From: Candidatus Nanoarchaeia archaeon
GTDB taxonomy: Bacteria; Patescibacteriota; Microgenomatia; Woykebacterales; RBG-16-39-9b
NCBI GenBank assembly: GCA_036382695.1
Contig: DASVHF010000072.1
Span: forward strand, 1 to 40,764
Length of the DNA: 40,764 nucleotides
Direction: 5' to 3'
The stretch's first letter is position 1. Each line of letters begins with the position of its first letter. The notes below the pieces were generated by a model. That model was not told the origin of the DNA. It saw only the letters and a program-made list of their open reading frames with translations, and searched no databases. Shown here piece after piece: positions 8,174 through 21,199 of this stretch. The translations under genes were made by a program, and so were the position numbers.

Positions 8174-8617
8174 TTATCTCCCCTTAGAGTAATTGCCCAC
8201 CAATTCTGCTTGAGCAACTATGTGACCATCCATTGCTTTTTCTACGTCTTCTTTTCCTGCGCTGTAAGGTAACTCTAAAATAATATCCAAAGCGTAAAGT
8301 TTAAAAAAGTAGCGGTGGGTTCCGCTCGGTGGACATGGCCCTCCGTACCCCACCTCGCCAAAATCGGTTACTCCTTGTGTGGTCCCGTCTGGAACCTTAC
8401 CTTCGCCAATTTCACTGGTTTCTGGATTTATATTCCAGATAGTCCAATGGACAAAAACCCTTCCCGGAGCATCCGGGTCGTCACAGATTAAAACCAGACT
8501 TTTTGCTTGGGTGGGCACATCAGAAAACTGCAGCGGGGGGCTAAAGTTACTTCCGTCACAAGTATATTTTGAGGGAATCGACGCGTTGTTAGCAAAAACC
8601 GGGCTCGTAATCTTCAT
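8174..8617 (-). CDS. YbhB/YbcL family Raf-kinase-inhibitor-like (PEBP) protein
   Basis: CDDPDAP, HW..WNI, GY.GPCPP.G.HRY.F.LYALD motifs. Confidence 0.85.
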   Translation of the reverse strand: MKITSPVFANNASIPSKYTCDGSNFSPPLQFSDVPTQAKSLVLICDDPDAPGRVFVHWTIWNINPETSEIGEGKVPDGTTQGVTDFGEVGYGGPCPPSGTHRYFFKLYALDIILELPYSAGKEDVEKAMDGHIVAQAELVGNYSKGR

Positions 8618-8734: not shown

Positions 8735-9034
8735 ATGGCCCAGGTAAATGTTTACTTGCACTCTGGTGATCCGCAGGCCAACCCGATTGAGTTACGTGTG
8801 GATGTAATAGGCGAGGACAACACGAAAACTTCTCATTTAGTAACAGTCTCTCAAGAACTTTACCAAAGATTAACTGGCGGTATAAAAAGCGCTGAGGAAT
8901 TGGTGAAGGCTTCGTTTGAATTTCTCTTAGAGCGGGAACCAAAAGAATCAATTTTGCAAAGTTTTGATCTATCCCAGATACAAAAATATTTCCCCGAATA
9001 CGAAACTATAATTTCTTCCCAATTTTTCAAGTAG
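8735..9034 (+). CDS. Hypothetical protein (99 aa)
   Basis: Protein-like composition. I prefer it over the overlapping minus-strand ORF 8589..8951, which is Cys/Arg/Phe-rich. Confidence 0.45.
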   Translation: MAQVNVYLHSGDPQANPIELRVDVIGEDNTKTSHLVTVSQELYQRLTGGIKSAEELVKASFEFLLEREPKESILQSFDLSQIQKYFPEYETIISSQFFK

Positions 9035-9911
9035 GTTTTTGGCCAGGTGGTTTAATAGGAATTTCGGCAGTTGTCTTTCTTTTGTTCCCAACGAAAAATG
9101 AAACTATAAAAAGTAGAAGAGAAACCAGCAGGGAGGAGCCATACATTATCAACAGGGTCTTGAGAAAATTTGTGGAAACAAGTGAGATCAGGCCCTTAAT
9201 GGAATCGCCTAGCTGCGCGAATTCGGGGCCTTTGAACTGATCCGTTACCAATCCAGTTATAACTGCAAATAGAAACGCTAGTGCTAAAGTAGTGGGTAAT
9301 CCTAAAATGGCTGGTACAAAAAGGGCTAAGGAGAGCTTGCGCAATTTTGATTTCCAACTTTCCGCCAACCAAAAGATCAGAAGCAGGAGGAGGCCACTGG
9401 CGGCCGCTAGGACCAACGGTGCTGCCAGGGTTATCTGGAAAACTTTTCTTACCCGCAGCTGCTCAGCAGTGGGTTTAAGTTTTATTGGCTCGGACAAAGG
9501 CTTCCTGATCTCTTGTGGTAAAGGGTAGTTTTTTTCTTTAGCGAAGACCTCTATTTTTTCATTTAAATCTGAAAGGTTGATGCTAGGCGTAGCCTCCGTC
9601 TTACCGGTCAGCCAAGCGAAAGTAGCATCAATTACTGGCTCTGTTTTCTTCTGAAGATAGTTGGCTGTAATTTCTTTAGCTAAAAACCCCTCAAAGGCCT
9701 TTTGAACCTCTTCAGGCGGTGGAGCCTCTTCCTGCGGTAGTTTAATTAAAGTGGGAGCTGACTTGGAAACTGCTTCATAAATTTTGCTCTTCACCAACTG
9801 CTCTTTAATGTAGCCTGGATTTAAAACCGTGTTTATTGAATAAGCGAAAATCGCCAGAGGAAAGATTAGGAAAAAGAGGAAAAATGAAATGAATGTCAGA
9901 AACCCGCGCAT
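9027..9911 (-). CDS. Hypothetical polytopic membrane protein, possibly the last gene of the SipW/TasA-like operon
   Basis: An N-terminal TM, a soluble ~150-aa segment, then four C-terminal TM segments. It lies 41 nt downstream of the RTX protein gene. Confidence 0.55.
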   Translation of the reverse strand: MRGFLTFISFFLFFLIFPLAIFAYSINTVLNPGYIKEQLVKSKIYEAVSKSAPTLIKLPQEEAPPPEEVQKAFEGFLAKEITANYLQKKTEPVIDATFAWLTGKTEATPSINLSDLNEKIEVFAKEKNYPLPQEIRKPLSEPIKLKPTAEQLRVRKVFQITLAAPLVLAAASGLLLLLIFWLAESWKSKLRKLSLALFVPAILGLPTTLALAFLFAVITGLVTDQFKGPEFAQLGDSIKGLISLVSTNFLKTLLIMYGSSLLVSLLLFIVSFFVGNKRKTTAEIPIKPPGQKPT

Positions 9912-9952
9912 TAAGAGTATTATCTAACAGCCAATCACTTGTTTGCAACTTT

Positions 9953-10942
9953 TTATGGCGGCTCGCAAGTCTGCACACTCTCCCCGTTTATACACGTATC
10001 AATCCCTTCGCCGCCTTTTAGTGCATCTACCCCGTCTCCACCATCTAAGTAATCATTGCCGGCGTGGCCCTTCAGGGAATCGCTACCAGCTCCACCAGAA
10101 AGCACGTCGTTCCCATCGTTTCCTTTTAGGCTATCAGCGCCTGGCCCTCCTATAAGAGTATCATTCCCTTTTCCACCGTGAAGAGAATCATCACCCTCCC
10201 CGCCAATCAGGACGTCATCGCCATCCTCACCTTTCAATGCATCATTGCCGCTTCCACCTACCAAGCAATCGTCGCCTCCACGACCTTTAATTGAATCATC
10301 GCCTTCTAGCCCAAATATAAGATCGTTCCCTGCTGTACCTTTTAGACTATCTTTTCCAGAAGTCCCGTAGATTGGTTCACCGGCAAAATCAATATGTGAA
10401 CATTCTGCCGGCACCTCCCCGACAATACCAATTATTATGTCGAAAATTACCTGCTTGCCCTGGAACTCGTTGCCAGCTTCTGGATCAAAGATCACTGTAA
10501 AAATGTAAGTGGTATCTTCTCCCGCTCCCAGTATAGAAAGTGGAATCCCATCTGGCTCACTTTCAGCAAAAAAATCAGAAAGATGCTTTGGGCCAGTCGC
10601 GCTTGCGCCGCCATAAAGATCGGTGCCGTCTTCGCTAATCACGAAGGTCAAAACTTGCGAAATATTCCCGGTTTCACTTTGATTTACTCCTTTCACCAAT
10701 ATTTCTCTCGCGACAGAACCGCCGTTTGTAACGACCGCCTCGCGATCCTCGGTTTCACCCGGCAACATATTATTAATTACAAATATTGGATCACCTTCCG
10801 GCACACCAAAATCAACTGTCAAATCACCGATCGCGCGCACCATCGATGGCCTGTTGTTTTGATAAATATTGATTACGGCAATAATCACCACTACGGCTAA
10901 AATGTAGACAAATATTCTTCTAAAAATTTCCTTCTTTTTCAT
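9953..10942 (-). CDS. Exported protein with an N-terminal signal anchor, a beta-rich domain and 14 RTX (hemolysin-type Ca2+-binding) nonapeptide repeats
   Basis: The TM segment is [17 protein letters not shown]. The central domain has NMLPGE...VVTNGGS, as in TasA/camelysin-type sandwiches. The C-terminal half reads [27 protein letters not shown] ... GGEGIDTCI in strict 9-aa register. Confidence 0.8.
9989..10366 (-). repeat. 14 tandem RTX nonapeptide units (GGxGxDxUx) encoded within the CDS
   Basis: Counted by hand at aa ~193-318 of the 329-aa protein. Confidence 0.8.
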
Positions 10943-10952
10943 TTTATTAAAA

Positions 10953-11567
10953 TCACTCCGCAGCTGAACTAAGTGCTTCTACGGCATCCAAATCGAATCC
11001 TAATGTCGGGTATGGATCACCCGCTGCTACTAAGTCAGTTAGTTTTACATATTTAACCTCAGCTAAACCAGTGCTTTCAATGTTCAAATCCACATTGGCA
11101 GTATCGGGAAAATCTCCAAGTGAATACCAAGTCGTTCCGTCTTGACTGACCTCAATCGTTGCTGTAGCAGGAAAAAGATCATCATAAACATGGATTCGGA
11201 TATCCGGATTCGTATCCCCTGTCGGAACAGCTTTATTGTCAACAAATTTTAGAGTAATGCTTGAATTATCGGAAATTTGAATAAAGTTGGTGGCCGGTGG
11301 GCTGTCTGGCGCCTCAGTCACCAAGGGTTCCGCCACGTTAGGATCTGAAGACAAATCTCCCGCGTCACAGCAGTGACCAAAAGTGCCCGTTACATCTACT
11401 ACTTCATCAACATACGGGTCAGGAAATTCTTCCGAGACCGAAAGTGTATTCCCTGCACTCGTTTCCGTATCAGAGAAAAATGGGGTGGTGGTGATAGTTT
11501 TTACGCCGACAACTATCAACGCTAAAATGAAAATAAAAGCACCAAGTTTTAAGACCGAGGATTTCAT
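10953..11567 (-). CDS. Exported protein with a SipW-dependent-type signal peptide
   Basis: The N-terminal TM is followed by [19 protein letters not shown]. The C-terminal beta-rich domain contains [16 protein letters not shown]...VKYVKLTD...[10 protein letters not shown]. The start overlaps the peptidase stop by 4 nt. Confidence 0.7.
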
Positions 11568-12130
11568 ATTACTGCTTGTTTCCTCCGCGAAAGAATTTTT
11601 TTAGTTTCGCTGATAATTGCCAGAATCTCACTGTAAATAATCAAGGTGATTGGAACAACAACCAGGAAAATGTAACCAAGCTGGGTTTTGGCAAAAGAAA
11701 CTGCATGCCCCACGTACGGAACTGTCAGAACCACCTTACCTAGAATCTGTCCCTCAGAAACCTTCGCCTGATCGGGCGTCCTATTTGCATCACCTTTGGT
11801 TTGGTAAGTAAATTGTCCGCTGCTTCCTTCGACTCCCACCACTCTATGAGTAATCGGATTATCCCCGGAAAGATACGTAACGATATCGCCTTTATTGAAC
11901 ATCGCTGAGGGTAATGGCGAAGCAACTTTCTTTATCTGACTTGTTGGTTGAACCAATAGTACCGACCCGATTTCAATACTTGGCTTCATCGAACCAGATT
12001 GGACGACAAAAAGTTGATAAGTCCCGGCCTTTCCAAAAACGGATAAGGCGACAGCGGCTCCAAAGACTATAATAGCCGCAATAAACAATGCATAAAATGT
12101 AGTACAAGCAATTTTTAATATTTTTTTCAT
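11564..12130 (-). CDS. Signal peptidase I, ER/archaeal (S26B, SipW-like) type
   Basis: An N-terminal TM, the Ser box VVQSGSMKPSIEIGS, the His box NPITHRVVG, GDANRTPD, and a C-terminal TM (YIFLVVVPITLIIYSEILAII). Confidence 0.8.
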   Translation of the reverse strand: MKKILKIACTTFYALFIAAIIVFGAAVALSVFGKAGTYQLFVVQSGSMKPSIEIGSVLLVQPTSQIKKVASPLPSAMFNKGDIVTYLSGDNPITHRVVGVEGSSGQFTYQTKGDANRTPDQAKVSEGQILGKVVLTVPYVGHAVSFAKTQLGYIFLVVVPITLIIYSEILAIISETKKILSRRKQAVI

Positions 12131-12166
12131 GGCAGTATCTGCACCTTTCTACTTAATGGCCTGGCG

Positions 12167-12186
12167 GGTGCGGGAGCAGCCGCACC
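12167..12186 (-). promoter_or_regulatory. GC-rich 7-bp hairpin (ggtgcgg-gagcag-ccgcacc) between the TasA-like gene and the peptidase gene
   Basis: Perfect stem with no U-tract. It is the only strong structure in the 91-nt intergenic gap. Confidence 0.45.
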
Positions 12187-12221
12187 TCACCAACCATTTC
12201 TCTCAGAACGAACTCCAACTA

Positions 12222-13262
12222 TTATGGCGCGTTCGTGTCGTCGTACTTAATCAAGTTGTACTCGAACAAGTACTTACTCTGGTCCCAATTAATCATCCTC
12301 GTCCCATTGTGGTGACCGGACAGAACCAACCAAATTTTTGCACCGGTTGGGTAGTTGTTATCGCTGGGATGTGGCAAATCGTAACCCAGATTTACATTCC
12401 CAGAAATAGTTAGATCCCCGTTGGAATCGGATGTGCCAGAACCAAGTACTGTACTTGGACTCCCGGGCAATGGCCCTTGCGGCCAAGGATCAGGGGCATA
12501 CACCAACTTGTAGTCGGTGCTTGGCTGTAGCCCATGAGCTTTAAGCGTACTACTGAAGTCAAAGGTTGGACCATCACCAGCCCACTTTAGTACACCCCAT
12601 TTTCCATCGCCAATGATTGGATTCCAACTCCCATCCTTGTTCTCCAGTAAAAGCGTAGTGCTGGTTGGACCTGGTGCTCCACCGGTTGTTTGTTCAGCGT
12701 AAATCTCGATAGAGAAGGTCAGCTTGTCACTTTGGGCCCAGTTGCCAGTATCGGCTCTCATGTGATAGCTTTGAGTAACTGTCATTGGCTGACCAGGATT
12801 TAGAGTACCGAGGTAAACGTAAGCGGATTCGATGTCGTCAAGCGTTATACCGTCGTCTGGGTCAATCACAGTTGTCTCGCCTACTGTCATATCGTACTCG
12901 ATTACCGTATCAATGTCGTTCTTGGGGACACCACCATTGTAAGTAGTGTACCAATCTTGCTCTGGCTCAGTAACTCCGTTCTCTTCGGTATCCACATCCT
13001 TGATGTGCTTCCAAATTCTGGCTGGATTGCTACCAACATTTGTTATGGTGAATGTTTTATATTCCACATTCGATGGCTTCATATCCGATATCGCGAAGTT
13101 ACCAGTCCAGGGATTATTATCGTCAACAGAGATATCAATGGTCCCAGCGGTAATGGTGTTTCCACTACTGGTTTCGGTGTCGGAGAAGTAAGCACGGGTG
13201 ACAGCAAAGCCGACTACTGCCACTATAGCAATAGTCAACATACTAACTAATATTCTCTTCAT
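12222..13262 (-). CDS. TasA/camelysin-like exported protein with a SipW-dependent-type signal peptide; candidate major subunit
   Basis: MKRILVSMLTIAIVAVVGFAVTRAYFSDTETSSGNTITAGTIDISV, followed by FAISDMKPS....FTITNVGSNPA. A strong SD, GGGAGG (13272-13277), lies 9 nt upstream of the ATG. Confidence 0.7.
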   Translation of the reverse strand: MKRILVSMLTIAIVAVVGFAVTRAYFSDTETSSGNTITAGTIDISVDDNNPWTGNFAISDMKPSNVEYKTFTITNVGSNPARIWKHIKDVDTEENGVTEPEQDWYTTYNGGVPKNDIDTVIEYDMTVGETTVIDPDDGITLDDIESAYVYLGTLNPGQPMTVTQSYHMRADTGNWAQSDKLTFSIEIYAEQTTGGAPGPTSTTLLLENKDGSWNPIIGDGKWGVLKWAGDGPTFDFSSTLKAHGLQPSTDYKLVYAPDPWPQGPLPGSPSTVLGSGTSDSNGDLTISGNVNLGYDLPHPSDNNYPTGAKIWLVLSGHHNGTRMINWDQSKYLFEYNLIKYDDTNAP

Positions 13263-13345
13263 TATTTTTCACCTCCCTTCAAGATAAGTTATAAGTATTA
13301 AGTAATAAGTATTAAGTTCAATAACTCGTTTCCGCTTCAACCTTC

Positions 13346-13372
13346 ATCCTTCATACTTCAGACTTTATACTT
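13346..13372. repeat. Direct repeat copy 1 (atccttcatacttcagactttatactt), ending 2 nt from the stop codon of the four-helix-bundle gene
   Basis: Identical at 26 of 27 positions to 13735-13761. Confidence 0.85.
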
Positions 13373-13374
13373 AA

Positions 13375-13743
13375 TTACGTGTTTTTGAGTTTTTTGATTG
13401 AAGCTGTGAGTATTTTTGCGATCTCTTCAGACTCCCCAATCAAATGTTTCATCCTATTTTTCGTTCGTACGTCGCTGCTTTCGGCTATTAACCTCAACCA
13501 GTAGATCGTTTCTCTAGCTTCCTTCTTGGCAATATTAGTGCTGTTTGTAAACTCCGCTTTTGTGTCAGAACCCAATGCTTCTTCAAGATTTGCACCGATC
13601 GATGTCCCAGATCTTAAAACTTGATTGATTAAAACCCTATTAACATCACTTCTTGGTAACTGCTTACAAAATTGTATTATTCTTAGCCCAAATTTAAATG
13701 TTCGTTCTCTTATATCTTCCGGTTTCCCACCTTTATCCTTCAT
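13375..13743 (-). CDS. Four-helix-bundle protein (the family historically mislabelled '23S rRNA intervening sequence protein')
   Basis: ERTFKFGLRIIQFCKQLP, LINQVLRSGTSIGANLEEA, and F....NIAKKEARETIYWLRLI are the characteristic helices of this family. Confidence 0.8.
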   Translation of the reverse strand: MKDKGGKPEDIRERTFKFGLRIIQFCKQLPRSDVNRVLINQVLRSGTSIGANLEEALGSDTKAEFTNSTNIAKKEARETIYWLRLIAESSDVRTKNRMKHLIGESEEIAKILTASIKKLKNT

Positions 13744-13761
13744 ACTTCAGACTTAATACTT
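13735..13761. repeat. Direct repeat copy 2 (atccttcatacttcagacttaatactt), overlapping the start codon of the four-helix-bundle gene
   Basis: See copy 1. The start codon (13741-13743) lies inside the repeat. Confidence 0.85.
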
Positions 13762-13800
13762 CGTCCTTACTCTTATAGACTTGCTGCCAACAAAAAGGTT

Positions 13801-13834
13801 ACAAACAAAAAGCTGTGCCAAAGTCAGCACAGCT
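13801..13834 (-). terminator. Intrinsic terminator downstream of rpoC
   Basis: Minus sense reads AGCUGUGC-ugacuuug-GCACAGCU (8-bp stem, 13811-13834) followed by UUUUUGUUUGU (13801-13810). Confidence 0.65.
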
Positions 13835-14058
13835 ACTATTCCTCTAGGTTGGGGCAATAAGCAGAACCATAATATTTATCCAATTTTTTCTGGGCAGATA
13901 GAAACTCGCGGGGCAGAAGAATACTCTTACACTTTAAGCATTTTGGTTTCAACTGTCAAGATAGAAAGGAGGTTTTTTTGGAAAGATTTCTAAATTTAGA
14001 ATTTACTCTAAGGTATGTGGGTGGCAGGGAGAGATGACAGAGAGTCTCCTTGTCAATT

Positions 14059-17000
14059 CTACTCTACCATCTGTTGTTCAGGTAGGATGATTGGTTCTTC
14101 AACGGTAGGTTTTTTCACTTCCACTTCTTCTGCAGCAACTACTTCGGTTTCTTCCGTAGTTTTTCTTACACCCCTACTATCAAGGCGCGCCCGCGGGCCA
14201 GTTGGAATCAACCGACCAATGATAACATTTTCTTTTAGTCCCCGCAAATAATCTATCTTACCGGAAGTTGCTGCATCAGTCAGAACAGAGGTGGTCTCTT
14301 GGAAACTAGCTGCTGATAAAACGCTCTCTGTGTAGAGAGCCGCTCTGGTAATTCCGAGGATAACCACGCTAGCTGTGGCTGGCTCCCCGCCCTCGGCCAA
14401 AACTTTTGCATTTTCCTCGGCAAACTTTACCTTGTCAATTAATTCGCCAGGCAGGAGACTGGTGTCACCAGAAGCCTGCACCCTCACTTTTTCACTCATC
14501 TTACGCACGATAGTTTCAAAATGTTTATCGTTAATTGGCGCTCCTTGAGATTCGTAGACTCTCTGCAGCTCAGAAATAATATATTGCTGGACTGCTCTTA
14601 AACCTTTAGCCTCCAGCAAGCTTCTCAGATCAAAGTGTCCGCTAGTTAGTGCCGCACCAGTCTCAACCATATCACCAGTTTTTACTAAAAGTTCGCTAGC
14701 GGCGGGGATTACGTACTCTTTTTCTACTTTAGTTTTTTTATCAAAAGCAACCACCCGCACTTTTGTTTGCTCGCCTTCTTCTACGATCTGGACCCTACCT
14801 GGAATTTCCGCCATCACAGCTGGAGTCTTGGGTGTCCTGGCCTCAAAAATTTCGTCTACCCGTGGCAAACCCTGGGTAATATCCAACCCGACAATACCTC
14901 CGAGATGGAAAGTTCTCATTGTCAGTTGTGTACCAGGCTCGCCAATTGACTGGGCTGCAATCACCCCCACTGGTGTCCCAATTTTCACTCCCTCTTTTAC
15001 TGCTAAGTCAAGGCCGTAACAAGCCTGACAAACCCCATATTTTGTTTCACAAGTCAAGGGTGACCGCACTAAAATCTCTTTTACCTTAGCTAGCGCAATT
15101 TTTTCAGCCGTTGCCCCAGTTATTCTTTCACCTGCTTTTGCTAAGACTGCTCCTTTTTCATTTTTAATATTCTTAGCTGCAACTCTACCTACAATTATTG
15201 CTGACCATGTTGTAGTCCGGTCTTTATCTTCTGAAATTATAATCCCTTCTTCTGTACTACAATCCTCCTCACGTACTAAAACATCATGGGCGACATCTAC
15301 CAACCTCCTAGTCAGATAGCCAGCGTCTGCAGTCTTTAGGGCTTTATCTACTAAACCTTTCCTAGCCCCACGAGTGGAGGTGAAGTATTCGTAAACTTCC
15401 AACCCCTCTCTGAAGTTGCTTTTGCTTGGAAGTTCTACTATCCTACCAAGAGGATCGGCTACTAAACCTCGCATACCGGCAAGTTGTTTAAGTTGATCTC
15501 TGCTACCACGGGCTTCTGATTCTTGCATTATTTTCAAAGAGTTATCCTCACTCATACTATCCAGAGTAAGTTGATCTATTTTTGCTGTCAGGGCTGACCA
15601 TATCTCTTCGGATAAACGCACTTTCTCAACTTCGGTAATAAGACCACGACGAAAGTTTTTTTCAATCTGCTCCACCTTAACTTCTGCTTGATCTATCAAT
15701 TTTTGCTTCTCAGGGATTATCTGAGCATCAGTAATAGACATTGAAATTCCCGAATTTGTGGCGTAAGAAAAGCCAAGATCTTTTAGAGAATCGATCAGTT
15801 GTACTGTTCTTTCTTTCCCGAAACGATTTTGACATTCAATTAAAATACTTTTTATGTCTGAACCTCTCACTACCTTATTGGCAAATCTCATCTCTTCCGG
15901 CAAGGCTTGGTTGAAAAAGATCCGGCCTACACTAGTCTCAATAATTTTATTTTTCCATTGGATCTTAATTATTTCTCGCAGACTCACACGTCCAAGGTGA
16001 TACGCTCCGATCGCTCCATCTTCGTCGAAAAATTTCTCAGCAGGGCCTTCTTCTAACCTAGTAAGGCAATACAGGCCTAAGAAGACGTCCCGGTTTGGCG
16101 TCATGATCGGTTCTCCATCAGCTGGCCGAAGAAGATTGTTGGTCGCCATCATTATTGAGATAGACTCATCTTGAGAGGTTTTGGCTAAAGGAACATGTAT
16201 TGCCATCTGGTCTCCATCGAAATCTGCCCCATAACCGGCACAGACTGAAGGGTGAATACCAATCGCATTTCCTTCGGTCAAAACCGGATAAAAAGCCTGT
16301 ATACCAAGTCTATGAAGGGTTGGAGCCCTGTTTAAGAGGATTGGATGGCCCTTGGTAATTGATTCCAAAATGTCCCAAACCTCGGTGCCACGCCGCTCAA
16401 AAACGTGTTTTGCACTTTTTACATTTGGCGCATAACCCTGATAAATCAACTCTCGTAATACATAAGGTTTAAACAGCTCTAGTGCCATCTCTTTGGGAAC
16501 CAGACATTCGTTTAATTTCACATTCGGGGCAACCACAATCACACTCCGCCCTGAATAGTCCACTCTTTTCCCTAGAAGGTTCTGGCGGAACCGTCCTTGC
16601 TTACCCTTTAGCATATCGGAAAGTGAACGAAGTACCTGCATCCCTGCCCTGGTTGGTGCAGGCCGCTGTGCCGAATCTATTAGAGCATCTACAGCTTCCT
16701 GCAGCATTCTTTTCTCATTACGTAAGATTATCTCTGGCGCACCCAAATCTGTAAGTCTTTTCAACCGGTTGTTACGATTGATCACTCTTCGGTAGAGATC
16801 GTTAAGATCGCTTGTTGCAAACCTTCCACCAGAAAGTTGAACCATTGGCCGCAGATCCGGGGGGATAACTGGTAGAACACCAAGAATCAGAGAAGTAGTT
16901 GCGACACCTGATTGTCTAAACCCTTCCACGACACGCAACCTTTTGGTAGCCTTAATCTGTTTTTGGCCTGTAGAATTCTGAACATCGACTCGCAGTTGCC

Positions 17001-17841
17001 CTGAAAGTTTATTAAGATCCAGTTCCTTCAAAACCTCCAATATTGCCTCAGCACCCATTCCAACCTTCAAAAAACCTATCGCGTCGTAACTTGCTAGTTT
17101 TTGATACTCATCTTCTGCGATAACAGAGAGCTTCTTGATCAACTTTACCTTTTCGCTCGCTGCTTTCTGCAATTCTCGCAGACTGGAAAGTTCAACCCTT
17201 TCTTCCTCCGCAAGATTTGTCCGCCTTGCCTTCGCCTTTAGCCGCAGTTCTTCAACTATTAACTCTTTCTGTTCTCTGTTTTTGATGTCAAGTTTTTTTA
17301 TTTCGTCTTTAAGAGCCAGGTCAATTTCCCCTAAGCGCTTTTTGTAACTGCTTTTCAGTTCTTCAATCTGCTTTTTAAATGACACTTCAATTTGGGCCAG
17401 AGATTTTTTCCTCTCTTCTTCATCTACACTAACCACTAAATAATTCGCAAAGTAAACAACCGCTTCCAAATAACGTGGTGTAATATCAAGTAGTTGTGAT
17501 AGTTTTGAAGGAGTGCCTTTAAAAAACCAGACGTGAGCCACCGGAGCGGCTAATTTAATATGGCCCATACGTTCTCTTCTTACTTTTGATTGAGTAACCT
17601 CGACTCCACATTTGTCACAAATTACACCGCGATAGCGAATTCTTTTATACTTACCGCAGTAGCATTCCCAATCTTTGGTCGGTCCAAAGATTTTCTCGTC
17701 GAATAAACCGTCTTTCTCTGGTCTGAAAGTTCGGTAGTTAATAGTTTCCGGTTTGGTAACTTCACCGTAAGACCAAGACAGTGTGTCGTCTGGGGATGCC
17801 AATACTATTCTCAATGCTTCAAAATCACGGATTTCATTCAT
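14059..17841 (-). CDS. rpoC: DNA-directed RNA polymerase subunit beta'
   Basis: Zn-finger CYCGKYKRIRYRGVICDKCGVEV, catalytic GADFDGDQM (NADFDGDQM-type), and trigger-loop/bridge-helix regions. 1260 aa. Confidence 0.98.
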   Translation of the reverse strand: MNEIRDFEALRIVLASPDDTLSWSYGEVTKPETINYRTFRPEKDGLFDEKIFGPTKDWECYCGKYKRIRYRGVICDKCGVEVTQSKVRRERMGHIKLAAPVAHVWFFKGTPSKLSQLLDITPRYLEAVVYFANYLVVSVDEEERKKSLAQIEVSFKKQIEELKSSYKKRLGEIDLALKDEIKKLDIKNREQKELIVEELRLKAKARRTNLAEEERVELSSLRELQKAASEKVKLIKKLSVIAEDEYQKLASYDAIGFLKVGMGAEAILEVLKELDLNKLSGQLRVDVQNSTGQKQIKATKRLRVVEGFRQSGVATTSLILGVLPVIPPDLRPMVQLSGGRFATSDLNDLYRRVINRNNRLKRLTDLGAPEIILRNEKRMLQEAVDALIDSAQRPAPTRAGMQVLRSLSDMLKGKQGRFRQNLLGKRVDYSGRSVIVVAPNVKLNECLVPKEMALELFKPYVLRELIYQGYAPNVKSAKHVFERRGTEVWDILESITKGHPILLNRAPTLHRLGIQAFYPVLTEGNAIGIHPSVCAGYGADFDGDQMAIHVPLAKTSQDESISIMMATNNLLRPADGEPIMTPNRDVFLGLYCLTRLEEGPAEKFFDEDGAIGAYHLGRVSLREIIKIQWKNKIIETSVGRIFFNQALPEEMRFANKVVRGSDIKSILIECQNRFGKERTVQLIDSLKDLGFSYATNSGISMSITDAQIIPEKQKLIDQAEVKVEQIEKNFRRGLITEVEKVRLSEEIWSALTAKIDQLTLDSMSEDNSLKIMQESEARGSRDQLKQLAGMRGLVADPLGRIVELPSKSNFREGLEVYEYFTSTRGARKGLVDKALKTADAGYLTRRLVDVAHDVLVREEDCSTEEGIIISEDKDRTTTWSAIIVGRVAAKNIKNEKGAVLAKAGERITGATAEKIALAKVKEILVRSPLTCETKYGVCQACYGLDLAVKEGVKIGTPVGVIAAQSIGEPGTQLTMRTFHLGGIVGLDITQGLPRVDEIFEARTPKTPAVMAEIPGRVQIVEEGEQTKVRVVAFDKKTKVEKEYVIPAASELLVKTGDMVETGAALTSGHFDLRSLLEAKGLRAVQQYIISELQRVYESQGAPINDKHFETIVRKMSEKVRVQASGDTSLLPGELIDKVKFAEENAKVLAEGGEPATASVVILGITRAALYTESVLSAASFQETTSVLTDAATSGKIDYLRGLKENVIIGRLIPTGPRARLDSRGVRKTTEETEVVAAEEVEVKKPTVEEPIILPEQQMVE

Positions 17842-17845
17842 ATAT

Positions 17846-20800
17846 CTAGTCTGCCTTCGCCTCTACACCTACCTTTTCTTTCAGATGCCGGACTTCAAAT
17901 CCCTCGGCACTCTCTTCGCCTTTAATCACTGTTTCCTCGCCGCTAGTTTCAGCTAAGTCTTTTGCCTCTTCTTCGATTTTTTCTTCGTCGGTAGCTTCCC
18001 TTTCGCCTACCTCTTTTTCCTCCTCCACCTTAGCTCCTAAAAGTTCAACTTTTAGTCCAAGGCCATTCAATTCTTTAACCAAGACCTTAAATGACTCTGG
18101 CACCGTGGATTCTGGAATATCAATTCCTTTTACAATCGCTTCGAACGCTTTTGCTCTACCAACCACGTCATCACTTTTAATGGTTAGCATTTCTTGAAGC
18201 GTGTGTGCAGCTCCATAAGCTTCGAGTGCCCAGACTTCCATTTCACCCAGCCTCTGACCTCCCATCTGAGCCTTACCTCCAAGAGGCTGTTGGGTGACTA
18301 ATGAGTAAGGTCCTGTACTTCTCGCATGCACCTTCTCGTCAACCATATGGACTAGTTTCATGATGTACCCGCTCCCTACTGTCACAGGACTTTTAAAGGC
18401 TTCGCCACTTTTACCATCATACAAAATCACTTTTCCACTCGCTGGTAAACCTGCTTTCTGCAATTCTTTAAAAAAATCTTCCTCTTTGAAGCCGCCGAAA
18501 GACGGTACGGCTGCTTTGTATTTTAGTTTTGTCGCGGCCCAGCCAAGATGGGTTTCTAAGAGCTGGCCAAGATTCATTCGGGAAATGACTGAAAGCGGTG
18601 AGATAATAATATCAATTGGTGTCCCATCTGCTAAGTAAGGCATATCTTCTACTGGTACAACTTTGCTAATTACACCTTTATTACCGTGACGACCTGCTAA
18701 TTTATCACCGACTGCAATCTTACGAGTTTGCGCTACTTTCACCTTTATAAGCCGGATCACCCCAGGCTCAAGCTCGTCTCCGCTTTCTTTGGAGAGAATT
18801 TGGACACCAACCACAGTTCCCCGCTCGCCATGGGGTATGCGTAGAGAAGTATCCCGCACTTCTCGTGCTTTTTCACCAAAAATTGCGCGAAGTAACCTTT
18901 CCTCTGCGGTCAGTTCTGTCTCACCCTTTGGCGTAATTTTACCCACTAAAATATCGTTTGGTCCCACCTCTGCTCCAATATAGACGATTCCTTCCTCGTC
19001 CAAATTGGCCAGGGCTTCTTCGCCAACATTAGGAATGTCCCTAGTTGTCTCCTCTGAACCCAGTTTAGTTTCATTCACTGAAATTTCATATTCCTCAATA
19101 TGAATTGAAGTTAGCGTATCGTCTCTAACCAATCTTTCAGAAATTACAATCGCGTCTTCATATCCATAACCTTCCCAACTCATGTAAGCAATTAAAAGGT
19201 TTTGGCCCAGGGAAAGTTCTCCGCCTTCAGTCGTAGGCCCATCAACTAAAAGCTCTCCTTTTTTAACCTTCTGACCGACTGAAACCAGGGGTCTCTGCGA
19301 GTAGCAGGTGTTTTGGTTGGATTTCTCAAACTTAATTAATGGAAATCTATACTCACCTTTATCTTTACCGCGAATTATAACCTCGTTAGCGTCTACAAAT
19401 TCAACCTTCCCATCTATTGGGTTTTTAATAATTCGGCCAATGTTTTCGGCTACCGGCTCCTCCATACCTGTACCTACTATCGGAGCGGTGGGGCGCACGA
19501 GAGGAACTGCTTGGTTTTGCATATTTGACCCCATCAGAGCCCGATTTGCTTCGTCATGAGCTAAAAATGGAATAAGTGAGGAGCTTGCACCTAACATCTG
19601 CCATGGCGCCAAGTCTATATAATCAACTAGCGAGGATGGCCCGCTGATAAATGAACCTTTATGTCGCAGGGGCACTCTCTTATCTAACATATAGCCGTTT
19701 TTATCAACAGAGACTGTTGCGTGCGTAATGTAATATTCCTCTTCGTCATCAGCCATCAGCCACACTATTTCATTGGTGACTTTTGCTCTTGAATCTTTTT
19801 TAACGACCCTTCGGTAGGGGGTTTCCAAAAAACCATACTCATTGATTCGTGACATTAGGGAAAGGTGGGTAATCAAGCCGATATTTGGGCCTTCTGGAGA
19901 TTTGATTGGGTCTATCCGTCCGTACTGAGAATTATTTATATCGTGGACTGAAAAGCTGGCTCGCTCCCTAGTCAATCCCCCAGGACCCATCACCGACAGT
20001 CGCCTCAAATGTTCTAGCTCCGATAATGAGTTTATTTGATCCATGAATTGAGAAAGTTGACTACCAGCAAAAAATTCGTTGAGCCGAGCAACTATCGGCC
20101 GGGCGTTTATTAGAGCAACTGGTGTCACCGCTGTCAGATCAGCAGAAAGACTCATCCGCTCTTTCACCACTCGTTCCATCTGTAACAAACCAATACGCAA
20201 CGTGTTTTGTACCAACTCTCCAACTGCCCTCACTCTCCTATTACCCAAATGGTCGATATCATCGGGCGCGCCTTCACCGTTATTAAGTCTAATTAGAAGT
20301 TTTAGCGCTGCTATTATATCTTCTGGTGAAAGTATCCAGTGGTCTGGGTCGTTGGCGATTTGTAAACCAAGCCGCTTATTTAGTTTATAACGCCCCACTT
20401 TACCCAAAGAGTAACGCCGGCTGTTGAAAAAAAGATTCTCTAAAAGCGCTTTTGCGTTTTCCACTATAGGTGGGTCACCTGGCCGCATCTTTCTGTAGAT
20501 CTCCAAAAATGCTTCTTCCGCCGAATCTGCTGGATCTTTACCCAGGGTAACTTCTACAAATGGGTGGTCTAGATTGGTATCTATTTCAAGAAAAAGGTTT
20601 TTGATTTTTTCAGTTCCGCCATACCCGATTGTACGTAAAAAAGTAGTCGCCGGAATTCTCCGCTTCCGGTCAATCCTAACTGATATTAAATCGTTTTTGG
20701 CGGTTTCAAATTCTAGCCAACTACCTCTAGTAGGCCGAAGCTCCGCCCGGAATAGCCTTCTCCCAGTGGCAGGATCAACCTCTGCTGTGTAGAAAATCCC

Positions 20801-21199
20801 CGGACTTCTAGTAAGCTGGGTAACAACAACCCGCTCAACACCGTTTATAATAAACGTACCGGAATCGGTCATCAATGGCAGATCACCCAGAAACACTTCT
20901 TGTTCCAAATTTTCTCCGCTTTGTTTATTTAAAAGCCGGCTTTTCACCTTCAGGGGAGCAGCAAAGGTACCACCTTTTTCGAGGGCAAGTCTAGGGGTAT
21001 ATTTTGGTTCACCAAAAGAATGCTCAATAAAATAAAGCGCAAAATTTTTTCCGGTGAAGTCTTCGATTGGTGAGATTTCAGCGAGAAGCTCTTTTACGCC
21101 ATCGTTCAAAAGCCACTCGTAAGAGGCTTTTTGTGGTTCTATTAAATTTATAATCGGAAAGTGTCTCCCTGCTGCTCCAAAAACCTTACGGTTAGCCAT
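17846..21199 (-). CDS. rpoB: DNA-directed RNA polymerase subunit beta
   Basis: Full-length collinear beta-subunit motifs, including FMDQ.N.LSE..H.RRLS, GRHGNKGV and GGQRLGEMEVWALEAYGAA. The C-terminus is an acidic Glu-rich tail. 1117 aa. Confidence 0.98.
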   Translation of the reverse strand: MANRKVFGAAGRHFPIINLIEPQKASYEWLLNDGVKELLAEISPIEDFTGKNFALYFIEHSFGEPKYTPRLALEKGGTFAAPLKVKSRLLNKQSGENLEQEVFLGDLPLMTDSGTFIINGVERVVVTQLTRSPGIFYTAEVDPATGRRLFRAELRPTRGSWLEFETAKNDLISVRIDRKRRIPATTFLRTIGYGGTEKIKNLFLEIDTNLDHPFVEVTLGKDPADSAEEAFLEIYRKMRPGDPPIVENAKALLENLFFNSRRYSLGKVGRYKLNKRLGLQIANDPDHWILSPEDIIAALKLLIRLNNGEGAPDDIDHLGNRRVRAVGELVQNTLRIGLLQMERVVKERMSLSADLTAVTPVALINARPIVARLNEFFAGSQLSQFMDQINSLSELEHLRRLSVMGPGGLTRERASFSVHDINNSQYGRIDPIKSPEGPNIGLITHLSLMSRINEYGFLETPYRRVVKKDSRAKVTNEIVWLMADDEEEYYITHATVSVDKNGYMLDKRVPLRHKGSFISGPSSLVDYIDLAPWQMLGASSSLIPFLAHDEANRALMGSNMQNQAVPLVRPTAPIVGTGMEEPVAENIGRIIKNPIDGKVEFVDANEVIIRGKDKGEYRFPLIKFEKSNQNTCYSQRPLVSVGQKVKKGELLVDGPTTEGGELSLGQNLLIAYMSWEGYGYEDAIVISERLVRDDTLTSIHIEEYEISVNETKLGSEETTRDIPNVGEEALANLDEEGIVYIGAEVGPNDILVGKITPKGETELTAEERLLRAIFGEKAREVRDTSLRIPHGERGTVVGVQILSKESGDELEPGVIRLIKVKVAQTRKIAVGDKLAGRHGNKGVISKVVPVEDMPYLADGTPIDIIISPLSVISRMNLGQLLETHLGWAATKLKYKAAVPSFGGFKEEDFFKELQKAGLPASGKVILYDGKSGEAFKSPVTVGSGYIMKLVHMVDEKVHARSTGPYSLVTQQPLGGKAQMGGQRLGEMEVWALEAYGAAHTLQEMLTIKSDDVVGRAKAFEAIVKGIDIPESTVPESFKVLVKELNGLGLKVELLGAKVEEEKEVGEREATDEEKIEEEAKDLAETSGEETVIKGEESAEGFEVRHLKEKVGVEAKAD

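Follow-up and report, generated by a model that had tools for sequence, protein, structure and literature searches.

A gene cluster from the Candidate Phyla Radiation that probably encodes a TasA-type surface fibre with its own signal peptidase

Introduction

Do four closely spaced genes, one of which codes for a signal peptidase, specify a surface fibre together with the enzyme that processes its subunits? The question is raised by a stretch of 40,764 nucleotides (contig DASVHF010000072.1 of assembly GCA_036382695.1, hereafter the window), which is the visible part of its source genome. A first-pass annotation of the window had inferred a surface fibre or matrix system with a dedicated, SipW-like signal peptidase and three exported proteins that looked like its cognate substrates. 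The four genes lie in the same direction on the minus strand, and their open reading frames (ORFs) were reproduced at identical positions (Table 1). We refer to their products, of 346, 188, 204 and 329 amino acids (aa), as P1 to P4 in the order of transcription. The analysis reported here suggests that the cluster probably encodes a TasA-type fibre assembled by donor-strand exchange (DSE), with P2 as its own processing enzyme.

The two solved members of the TasA superfamily considered here, Bacillus subtilis TasA and archaeal AbpA, both form linear DSE filaments (PMC9245690, PMC9674648). In the TasA precursor, residues 28-38 (AFNDIKSKDAT) form the mature N-terminus and serve as donor strand to the next subunit, which they complete, and TasA has been compared with Gram-negative DSE pili (PMC9674648). 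The N-terminus of TapA, which is similar to the TasA donor strand, has been proposed as the source of the first strand (PMC9674648), and Wang et al. (2022) proposed both AbpB and TapA as first-strand donors (PMC9245690). The same authors mention PF12389 homologs in Patescibacteria in a one-line survey remark (PMC9245690).

Table 1. Features of the four-gene cluster and its immediate surroundings, in positions of the window
Feature	Position	Strand	Basis
P1, 346-aa two-domain TasA-family major (shaft) subunit	12222..13262	-	PF12389, TIGR04088, AF2 and Foldseek
P1 signal peptide, aa 1-24 (...AVTRA/YFSD)	13191..13262	-	AF2 helix 2-22; predicted cleavage
P1 putative donor strand, aa 25-38, YFSDTETSSGNTIT	13149..13190	-	aligned with TasA 28-38
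P1 TasA-like jelly-roll domain, aa ~39-197	12672..13148	-	5of1 profile; Foldseek 8aur_A, 5of1_B
P1 extra C-terminal all-beta domain, aa ~198-346	12225..12671	-	AF2, DSSP strands only
P2, 188-aa archaeal/ER-type (S26B) signal peptidase I	11564..12130	-	TIGR02228; SEC11 alignment
P3, 204-aa donor-peptide-only protein with lectin-like head	10953..11567	-	signal+donor HMM; AF2 and Foldseek
P3 donor-strand-like peptide, aa 30-44	11436..11480	-	HMM match aa 18-43
P3 CBM32 / F5-8 type C (discoidin)-like domain, aa ~52-204	10956..11414	-	Foldseek vs PDB
P4, 329-aa acceptor-only TasA-like protein with C-terminal RTX	9953..10942	-	hhalign; PF00353
P4 signal peptide, aa 1-37 (...MVRA/IGDL), ordinary AxA type	10832..10942	-	predicted cleavage
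P4 TasA-like domain without donor strand, aa 38-~176	10415..10831	-	hhalign to P1 family
P4 RTX beta-roll repeats and C-x8-C-E-P-P end	9956..10375	-	PF00353 scan
Shine-Dalgarno GGGAGGTG of the P1 gene	13270..13277	-	9 nt 5' of first ATG
GC-rich hairpin in the 91-nt P1-peptidase gap	12156..12197	-	folding; weak evidence
P5, 294-aa multi-transmembrane protein; module membership doubtful	9027..9911	-	directly downstream of P4
AF2, AlphaFold2; ER, endoplasmic reticulum; HMM, hidden Markov model.

Results

P1 is a two-domain member of the TasA family

Family scans placed P1 with TasA: it scored 35.0 bits against PF12389 (Peptidase_M73, camelysin/TasA; gathering threshold 22.5) and 33.1 bits against TIGR04088 (SipW-dependent-type signal; cut-off 19). 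PF12389 was also present in 108 of 120 P1 homologs, among the matches listed. A profile built from 91 P1 homologs retrieved B. subtilis TasA (5of1, aa 31-213) as the best solved sequence. The AF2 model of P1 (predicted local distance difference test, pLDDT, 86.3; predicted TM-score 0.78) was compared with the PDB by Foldseek. The top match was the TasA fibre (8aur_A, E 1e-4, probability 1.0), followed by the TasA monomer (5of1_B, E 3e-3, probability 1.0). The TasA-like fold predicted in the first-pass annotation therefore holds for P1. Its additional C-terminal domain, which had no Pfam match and only noise against PDB sequences, was modelled with a pLDDT mostly above 90 and is kept in most of the related loci surveyed. 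The P1 gene also has, as had been noted, the strongest Shine-Dalgarno sequence: the duplex formed by GGGAGGTG (-12.9 kcal/mol, with a generic anti-Shine-Dalgarno) was the best among the 31 scored ORFs.

The peptide shared by P1 and P3 reads as a donor strand

All motifs quoted in the first-pass annotation were found again: SGSMKPS, ITHRVVG, GDANRTPD, AYFSDTETSSGNTITAG and its 16-residue counterpart in P3. The near identity of the peptides of P1 and P3 is not due to chance. An HMM of the N-terminal 38 residues, made from 90 homologs of P1 and not from the window P1 itself, singled out P1 (E 1.2e-23) and P3 (E 4.5e-8) among the 148 ORFs of the window, the next match having an E value of 0.87. 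In related loci this signal+donor HMM matched 175 ORFs, and none of 49 P4-type ORFs.

In the profile alignment, the P1 peptide YFSDTETSSGN falls on TasA residues 28-38, and residues 23-38 of P1 are disordered in the monomer model (pLDDT <50). The consensus of the P1 family at the junction between signal and mature protein is GxTxA-YFSDTETS. Mature TasA begins at residue 28; by comparison with it, we placed the putative cleavage site of P1 before Y25. The FSDTETS peptide had earlier been assigned to the SipW-cognate class, which the TIGR04088 score of P1 bears out; it is, however, better read as a mature donor strand than as a part of the signal. A Phe at P2' is reported to make TasA a poor substrate of LepB and dependent on SipW (PMC10269814). 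The aromatic residue at P2' in P1 (A/YF) would thus provide a rationale for a dedicated peptidase.

P3 carries the donor peptide on a lectin-like head

P3 had no family match in Pfam or NCBIfam, and the standard TIGR04088 scan did not report it even at E<=10; the unfiltered custom HMM was needed to detect its signal and peptide. Its AF2 model (pLDDT 85.7) shows a signal helix, a donor-peptide stretch of low confidence (58-71) and a compact domain. Against the PDB, Foldseek matched this domain to the CBM32 module of AlyQ (7d29, 7d2a; E ~2e-4, probability 1.0, target-normalised TM-score 0.59-0.63), with many more CBM32, CBM6 and F5/8-C matches below. P3 was thus wrongly taken for a TasA-like subunit: its body is CBM32/discoidin-like, and it has only the N-terminal signal and peptide in common with P1. 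Within the P3-type peptide, F30, F31, S32, D33, S37 and N40 are invariant over three types of body. P3 is an analog of the TapA-like nucleators and not a member of that group. By this analogy with TapA and AbpB we propose that it acts as starter or tip of the fibre, where it probably serves as a glycan-binding tip or attachment point.

P4 has a TasA-like domain and lacks the donor peptide

The RTX repeats recognized in the first-pass annotation were confirmed by a PF00353 score of 104.4 bits (threshold 23), distributed over four matched stretches in the C-terminal half of P4. The N-terminal half had no family match in the Pfam and NCBIfam scans. Profile comparison by hhalign aligned this N-terminal domain with the P1 family at a probability of 91.9% when 4 sequences were used, and of 96.4% (E 1.2e-9) with 30 sequences. 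The domain family comprises 905 cluster representatives at E<=1e-3 and lies near the protein N-terminus in most of the matches listed. P4-type relatives have classical AxA signal peptides, directly followed by the first core strand; an N-terminal transmembrane anchor of P4 was rejected on this ground. The cognate peptide is missing in P4, as it is in each of the 49 relatives found for its N-terminal domain. The description as cognate-looking, given to all three exported proteins, consequently stands for P1 and P3 and falls for the RTX protein.

P3 and P4 are therefore complementary: P3 offers a donor peptide but no TasA fold, and should only donate; P4 offers a TasA-like domain but no donor peptide, and should only accept.

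The C-terminal parts of the P4-type proteins fall into two kinds. A hydrophobic 19-mer, in most cases followed by a K/R-rich tail, ends 32 of 33 members without RTX repeats, which points to a C-terminal membrane anchor; in the non-RTX members that were scanned, the middle of the protein is occupied by an FN3-like domain (PF16656). None of 12 distinct RTX-type relatives from other loci has a transmembrane segment, nor has the tail of the window P4. These 12 proteins share a conserved Cys...Cys-Glu end (seen at loci L003, L005, L008, L019, L059, L070, L073, L076, L079 and L081), in most of them C-x7-8-C-E-L. The corresponding end of the window P4 lies at 9956-9990. It is possibly a terminal knob closed by a disulfide, or else a sorting motif. 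P4 has an N-terminal signal peptide, and the block contains no ABC/MFP (ATP-binding cassette/membrane fusion protein) exporter gene.

Searching the PDB with the P4-family profile gave marginal matches only. The best were the streptococcal pilus base/anchor pilins FctB (3klq, 8k6t; E 0.012-0.015, 49 residues), over positions 108-156 of the profile model of the N-terminal domain. Such a match is suggestive beside an anchor role, but it is too marginal to indicate homology. A separate observation concerns the 4976-aa protein P0165, in which 25 separate stretches match a 27-residue piece of the P4 N-terminal domain (aa 134-160); it may be a repeat protein built of that strand motif.

P2 is a signal peptidase of the archaeal/ER type

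P2 has transmembrane segments at both ends and conserved boxes around Ser47, His95 and Asp114/Asp120. It scored 93.5 bits against TIGR02228, the archaeal-type signal peptidase I (cut-off 51.85), and stayed below the cut-offs of the bacterial LepB-type model TIGR02227 (35.9 vs 47) and of PRK10861 (LepB; 12 vs 277). Among solved structures it is closest to human SEC11C and SEC11A, with which its SGSM, HRV and GDxN..D boxes align, indicating a Ser/His S26B enzyme with no Ser/Lys dyad. These results agree with the earlier assignment of P2 to the ER/archaeal S26B type rather than to LepB. The resemblance to SipW that had also been pointed out applies to layout and genomic context; P2 missed the cut-off of the Bacillus SipW equivalog NF046067 (108.5 bits vs 190). 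P2 is SipW-like in these two respects and, by this criterion, not a strict SipW ortholog. Gene context, that is adjacency and the gene fusions described below, supports the view that P2 would cleave the adjoining TasA-type precursors.

The block is conserved in divergent lineages, and its peptidase can be fused to a substrate

Relatives of the cluster were collected from one genome per GTDB species. A P1 relative was found at 476 loci, the best 80 of which were surveyed for their ORFs. Taxon labels of the related metagenome-assembled genomes (MAGs) are those under which they were deposited, and are unreliable. The best 80 of the 476 loci carry mostly labels of the Candidate Phyla Radiation (CPR), namely Woykebacteria, Parcubacteria, Nealsonbacteria, Moranbacteria, WWE3, CPR3 and Campbellbacteria; a few are labelled Chloroflexota or archaea. 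A P1-type ORF was present in 79 of the 80 loci, with the peptidase adjacent in 62 of these 79. Downstream sequence of at least 5.5 kb was available at 37 loci; 32 of them have a P4-type gene, which carries RTX repeats in 6 of these 32. At locus L001, in a 79%-identical relative and on an 846-kb contig, the block is present and its flanks are those of the window; at L003 (a Woykebacteria genome) and L005 the block is present and the flanks differ. Across divergent CPR lineages the gene order shaft, peptidase, donor-only protein, acceptor-only protein is kept. The recurrence of the block with different flanks in many CPR genomes indicates that it is conserved as a unit.

Proteins in the P3 position have the same N-terminal peptide and exchanged bodies: CBM32-like in the window, a 164-aa type, and proteins of ~745 aa (with LTD and LamG at L006). 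At L004, the gene in this position (8738-9352) joins a SipW-type signal and donor peptide directly to RTX repeats. This locus has no separate RTX gene, and looks as if a deletion or a recombination had joined genes 3 and 4.

A single reading frame encodes both the peptidase and a P3-type substrate at 12 or more loci (L016, L019, L040, L059, L068, L070, L071, L073, L076/L077, L079 and L081/L082), and protein P0151 is a fusion of the same kind. In these fusions the peptidase is followed by an extra transmembrane segment, then by a donor-type peptide with the consensus FFSDxExSxGN, and finally by a body that varies and is LTD-like or of the 164-aa type. They agree with the arrangement in the window, where the start of the P3 ORF and the stop of the P2 ORF share 4 nt (ATGA). 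The fusion of a peptidase to its presumed substrate suggests self-processing in cis.

Discussion

A model for fibre assembly

The surface fibre or matrix with a dedicated peptidase that had been proposed for this cluster is supported by our results: the peptidase does not score as an ordinary LepB-type enzyme, P1 has a TasA-like fold, and the block recurs as a unit in related genomes. We consider it fairly probable that the four genes specify a TasA-type DSE fibre and the enzyme that processes it. P2 would cut P1 and P3 right before the (Y/F)FSDTETSxGN peptide, where a LepB-type enzyme would be poor. The N-terminal strand of mature P1 would then enter the jelly-roll of the next P1, giving a shaft of two-domain subunits. 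P3, as proposed for TapA and AbpB, would nucleate or cap the acceptor end and bring along its lectin head, while P4 would cap the growing end and terminate the chain. In most CPR relatives the transmembrane anchor of the P4-type protein would tie the fibre to the cell membrane; in the lineage of the window the RTX beta-roll would stand in for this anchor.

Several points weigh against this model. The PF12389 match of P1 is limited to aa 8-78, the match of the P1-family profile to 5of1 is weak (E 0.01), and the TM-scores of P1 to TasA are moderate (0.48-0.53, target-normalised). In this lineage P3 has a Pro at the expected -1 position (TTTP/FFSD), an uncommon residue at sites cut by type I signal peptidases. 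The window P4 has no membrane anchor, so that an anchoring role is not directly transferable to it. No sigma-70-like promoter was found 5' of P1 in a scan of 8900-14100. The donor peptides of P1 and P3 have 10.71 of 18 residues identical within a locus and 10.09 between loci, a marginal difference. Finally, the case for DSE is drawn from homology. As to the comparison within and between loci, 8 of 10,000 permutations reached the observed value; we dropped this co-variation of P1 and P3 as evidence because relatedness confounds it and because some of the proteins picked as P3 are perhaps second shaft subunits.

Alternative explanations

The roles of the two end proteins could be exchanged. P4 would then be a chaperone- or usher-like membrane platform or placeholder holding the free donor strand, P3 would bind glycans of the cell's own envelope, and the polarity of the fibre would be reversed. 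The membrane anchor of the non-RTX P4-type proteins would site them where new subunits emerge, Bacillus TapA is described as cell-wall associated (PMC9674648), and a CBM32-like domain could bind self glycans. Since the window P4 is devoid of an anchor, it makes a poor membrane platform in this lineage. We regard this arrangement as unlikely, and the data do not discriminate between P4 as a platform and P4 as a cap.

It is equally unlikely, in our estimate, that the cluster codes for unrelated exoproteins (a surface protein or protease resembling camelysin, together with a lectin and a calcium-binding RTX protein) that have export and processing in common and form no fibre. In formal terms PF12389 is a peptidase family (camelysin, M73), and its match in P1 is confined to the N-terminal 70 residues; P3 and P4 have functional domains of their own (CBM32-like and RTX), and the polymer itself is a prediction. 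However, the counterpart in TasA of the peptide common to P1 and P3 is the donor strand and not the hydrophobic signal. P4 is itself TasA-like, with the donor peptide in 0 of 49 relatives, a complementarity not expected of unrelated cargo, and the four-part gene order is conserved over divergent CPR lineages. A two-dimensional, S-layer-like surface lattice of P1 is very improbable: the extra conserved beta-sandwich could provide lateral contacts and the strongest ribosome-binding site of the scored ORFs would be expected for an abundant envelope protein, but solved TasA and AbpA both form linear DSE filaments, and donor-only and acceptor-only partners suit the two ends of a linear polymer better. 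Both of these latter explanations fit the complementarity of the peptides and the conserved gene order less well than the DSE fibre does.

Comparison with known systems

The tapA-sipW-tasA operon of B. subtilis has the same key elements: a gene for a dedicated archaeal-type signal peptidase between the substrate genes, a TasA jelly-roll major subunit with the donor peptide right after the cleavage site (FNDIKSK in TasA, FSDTETS here), and a minor protein, thought to be a nucleator, with only that N-terminal peptide in common. As the first-pass annotation had noticed, the set of subunits nevertheless differs from the Bacillus layout. The order of the CPR block is shaft, peptidase, starter, cap. 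Its shaft subunit has an extra C-terminal beta-sandwich of ~150 aa that is not in Bacillus TasA, and its starter has a CBM32-like head instead of the TapA fold, the core of which is described as macroglobulin-like (PMC9245690). For the fourth protein, which is TasA-like, should only accept and bears RTX repeats or a transmembrane anchor, no counterpart was found in the Bacillus literature searched. Unlike Bacillus SipW, the CPR peptidase falls under the SipW equivalog cut-off.

The archaeal bundling pili (ABP) of Pyrobaculum calidifontis also consist of a TasA-superfamily jelly-roll pilin, AbpA, assembled by DSE (PMC9245690). AbpB, a larger neighbour protein proposed as first-strand donor and adhesin, resembles P3 in this respect (PMC9245690). 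The ABP operon has no dedicated signal peptidase (PMC9245690), whereas the CPR block has a conserved one that is sometimes fused to a substrate; the host is here a CPR bacterium.

The logic of distinct tip, shaft and terminator or anchor is shared with chaperone-usher and sortase-assembled pili, as a functional analogy only. Chaperone-usher pili also polymerise by DSE. In contrast to these systems, the CPR block contains no usher, periplasmic chaperone or sortase gene, its subunits have another fold, and export would involve Sec and a SipW-type peptidase.

In the NCBI records P1 is entered as 'TasA family protein', P2 as 'signal peptidase I', P3 as 'hypothetical' and P4 as 'calcium-binding protein'. 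Our literature search found no description of the CPR operon architecture, of an acceptor-only TasA-like cap or anchor, or of peptidase-substrate fusions; on TasA-type systems in CPR bacteria its one pertinent result was the survey remark of Wang et al. (PMC9245690). The TasA-type module is well supported, and the four-part architecture is moderately novel.

A possible pilus of episymbiotic bacteria

According to PMC12206443, cultivated CPR bacteria are all obligate episymbionts, and the studies of CPR attachment found in our literature search concern type IV pili. A more far-reaching view, which we put forward tentatively, is that the block encodes a complete and self-contained CPR pilus. Its DSE would be independent of chaperone, usher and sortase, and it would serve, beside type IV pili, in the attachment of episymbionts to hosts or surfaces. 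Taken together and with the same reserve, such a pilus might have a tip that can only donate and whose adhesin heads are exchangeable (CBM32, LTD, RTX and others), in some cases fused to the peptidase, a two-domain shaft, and an acceptor-only terminator anchored by a C-terminal transmembrane helix or, in the lineage of the window, by RTX repeats. If this is true, a widely conserved TasA-type fibre would be a second testable candidate for host or surface attachment in CPR bacteria, and the lectin-type starter and the anchored or RTX-bearing end-cap yield specific predictions. The donor-only/acceptor-only pair and the peptidase fusions would also extend the TasA/ABP assembly model, suggesting explicit components for initiation and termination such as are not described for Bacillus.

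Neighbouring genes and small elements

The gaps between the genes are 91 nt (P1-P2) and 10 nt (P3-P4). The 106-nt region with the hairpin between P1 and P2 has a minimum free energy of -36.1 kcal/mol, a modest value relative to shuffled sequences (z = -2.0). The hairpin has no U-tail and was not called in the terminator scan; it is possibly an attenuator or stabiliser, and could adjust the ratio of P1 to the products of the genes downstream. The promoter and terminator scan of 8900-14100 gave no more sites than shuffled sequence did, and Rfam and tRNA scans of the window gave no matches.

P5, the multi-transmembrane protein encoded after P4, had no match in the Pfam and NCBIfam scans. Genes homologous to it were found downstream of the block only in L001, L002 and L004, which are close relatives, and it was therefore not counted as a fifth core component. 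After P5 comes a PEBP-family gene (8174-8617, minus strand); PF01161 (PEBP) was found in its homologs at L001, L002 and L004, and the order P5-PEBP is kept in the closest relatives only.

Directly upstream of P1, on the same strand, lie rpoB, rpoC and then the gene of a 23S rRNA intervening sequence protein, a four-helix bundle (13375-13743, minus strand; PF05635, TIGR02436), which adjoins P1. The latter gene has the same place at L001 and L002, and at L003 a copy is located ~1.7 kb upstream of the block. The region of rpoC and rpoB (14059-21199) codes for a bacterial-type single-chain beta' subunit of 1260 aa and a beta subunit of 1117 aa. NCBI calls the source MAG 'Candidatus Nanoarchaeia archaeon' (HEX74566xx), and the closest named relatives of the window are CPR Woykebacteria; the archaeal label looks wrong, or the bin contaminated.

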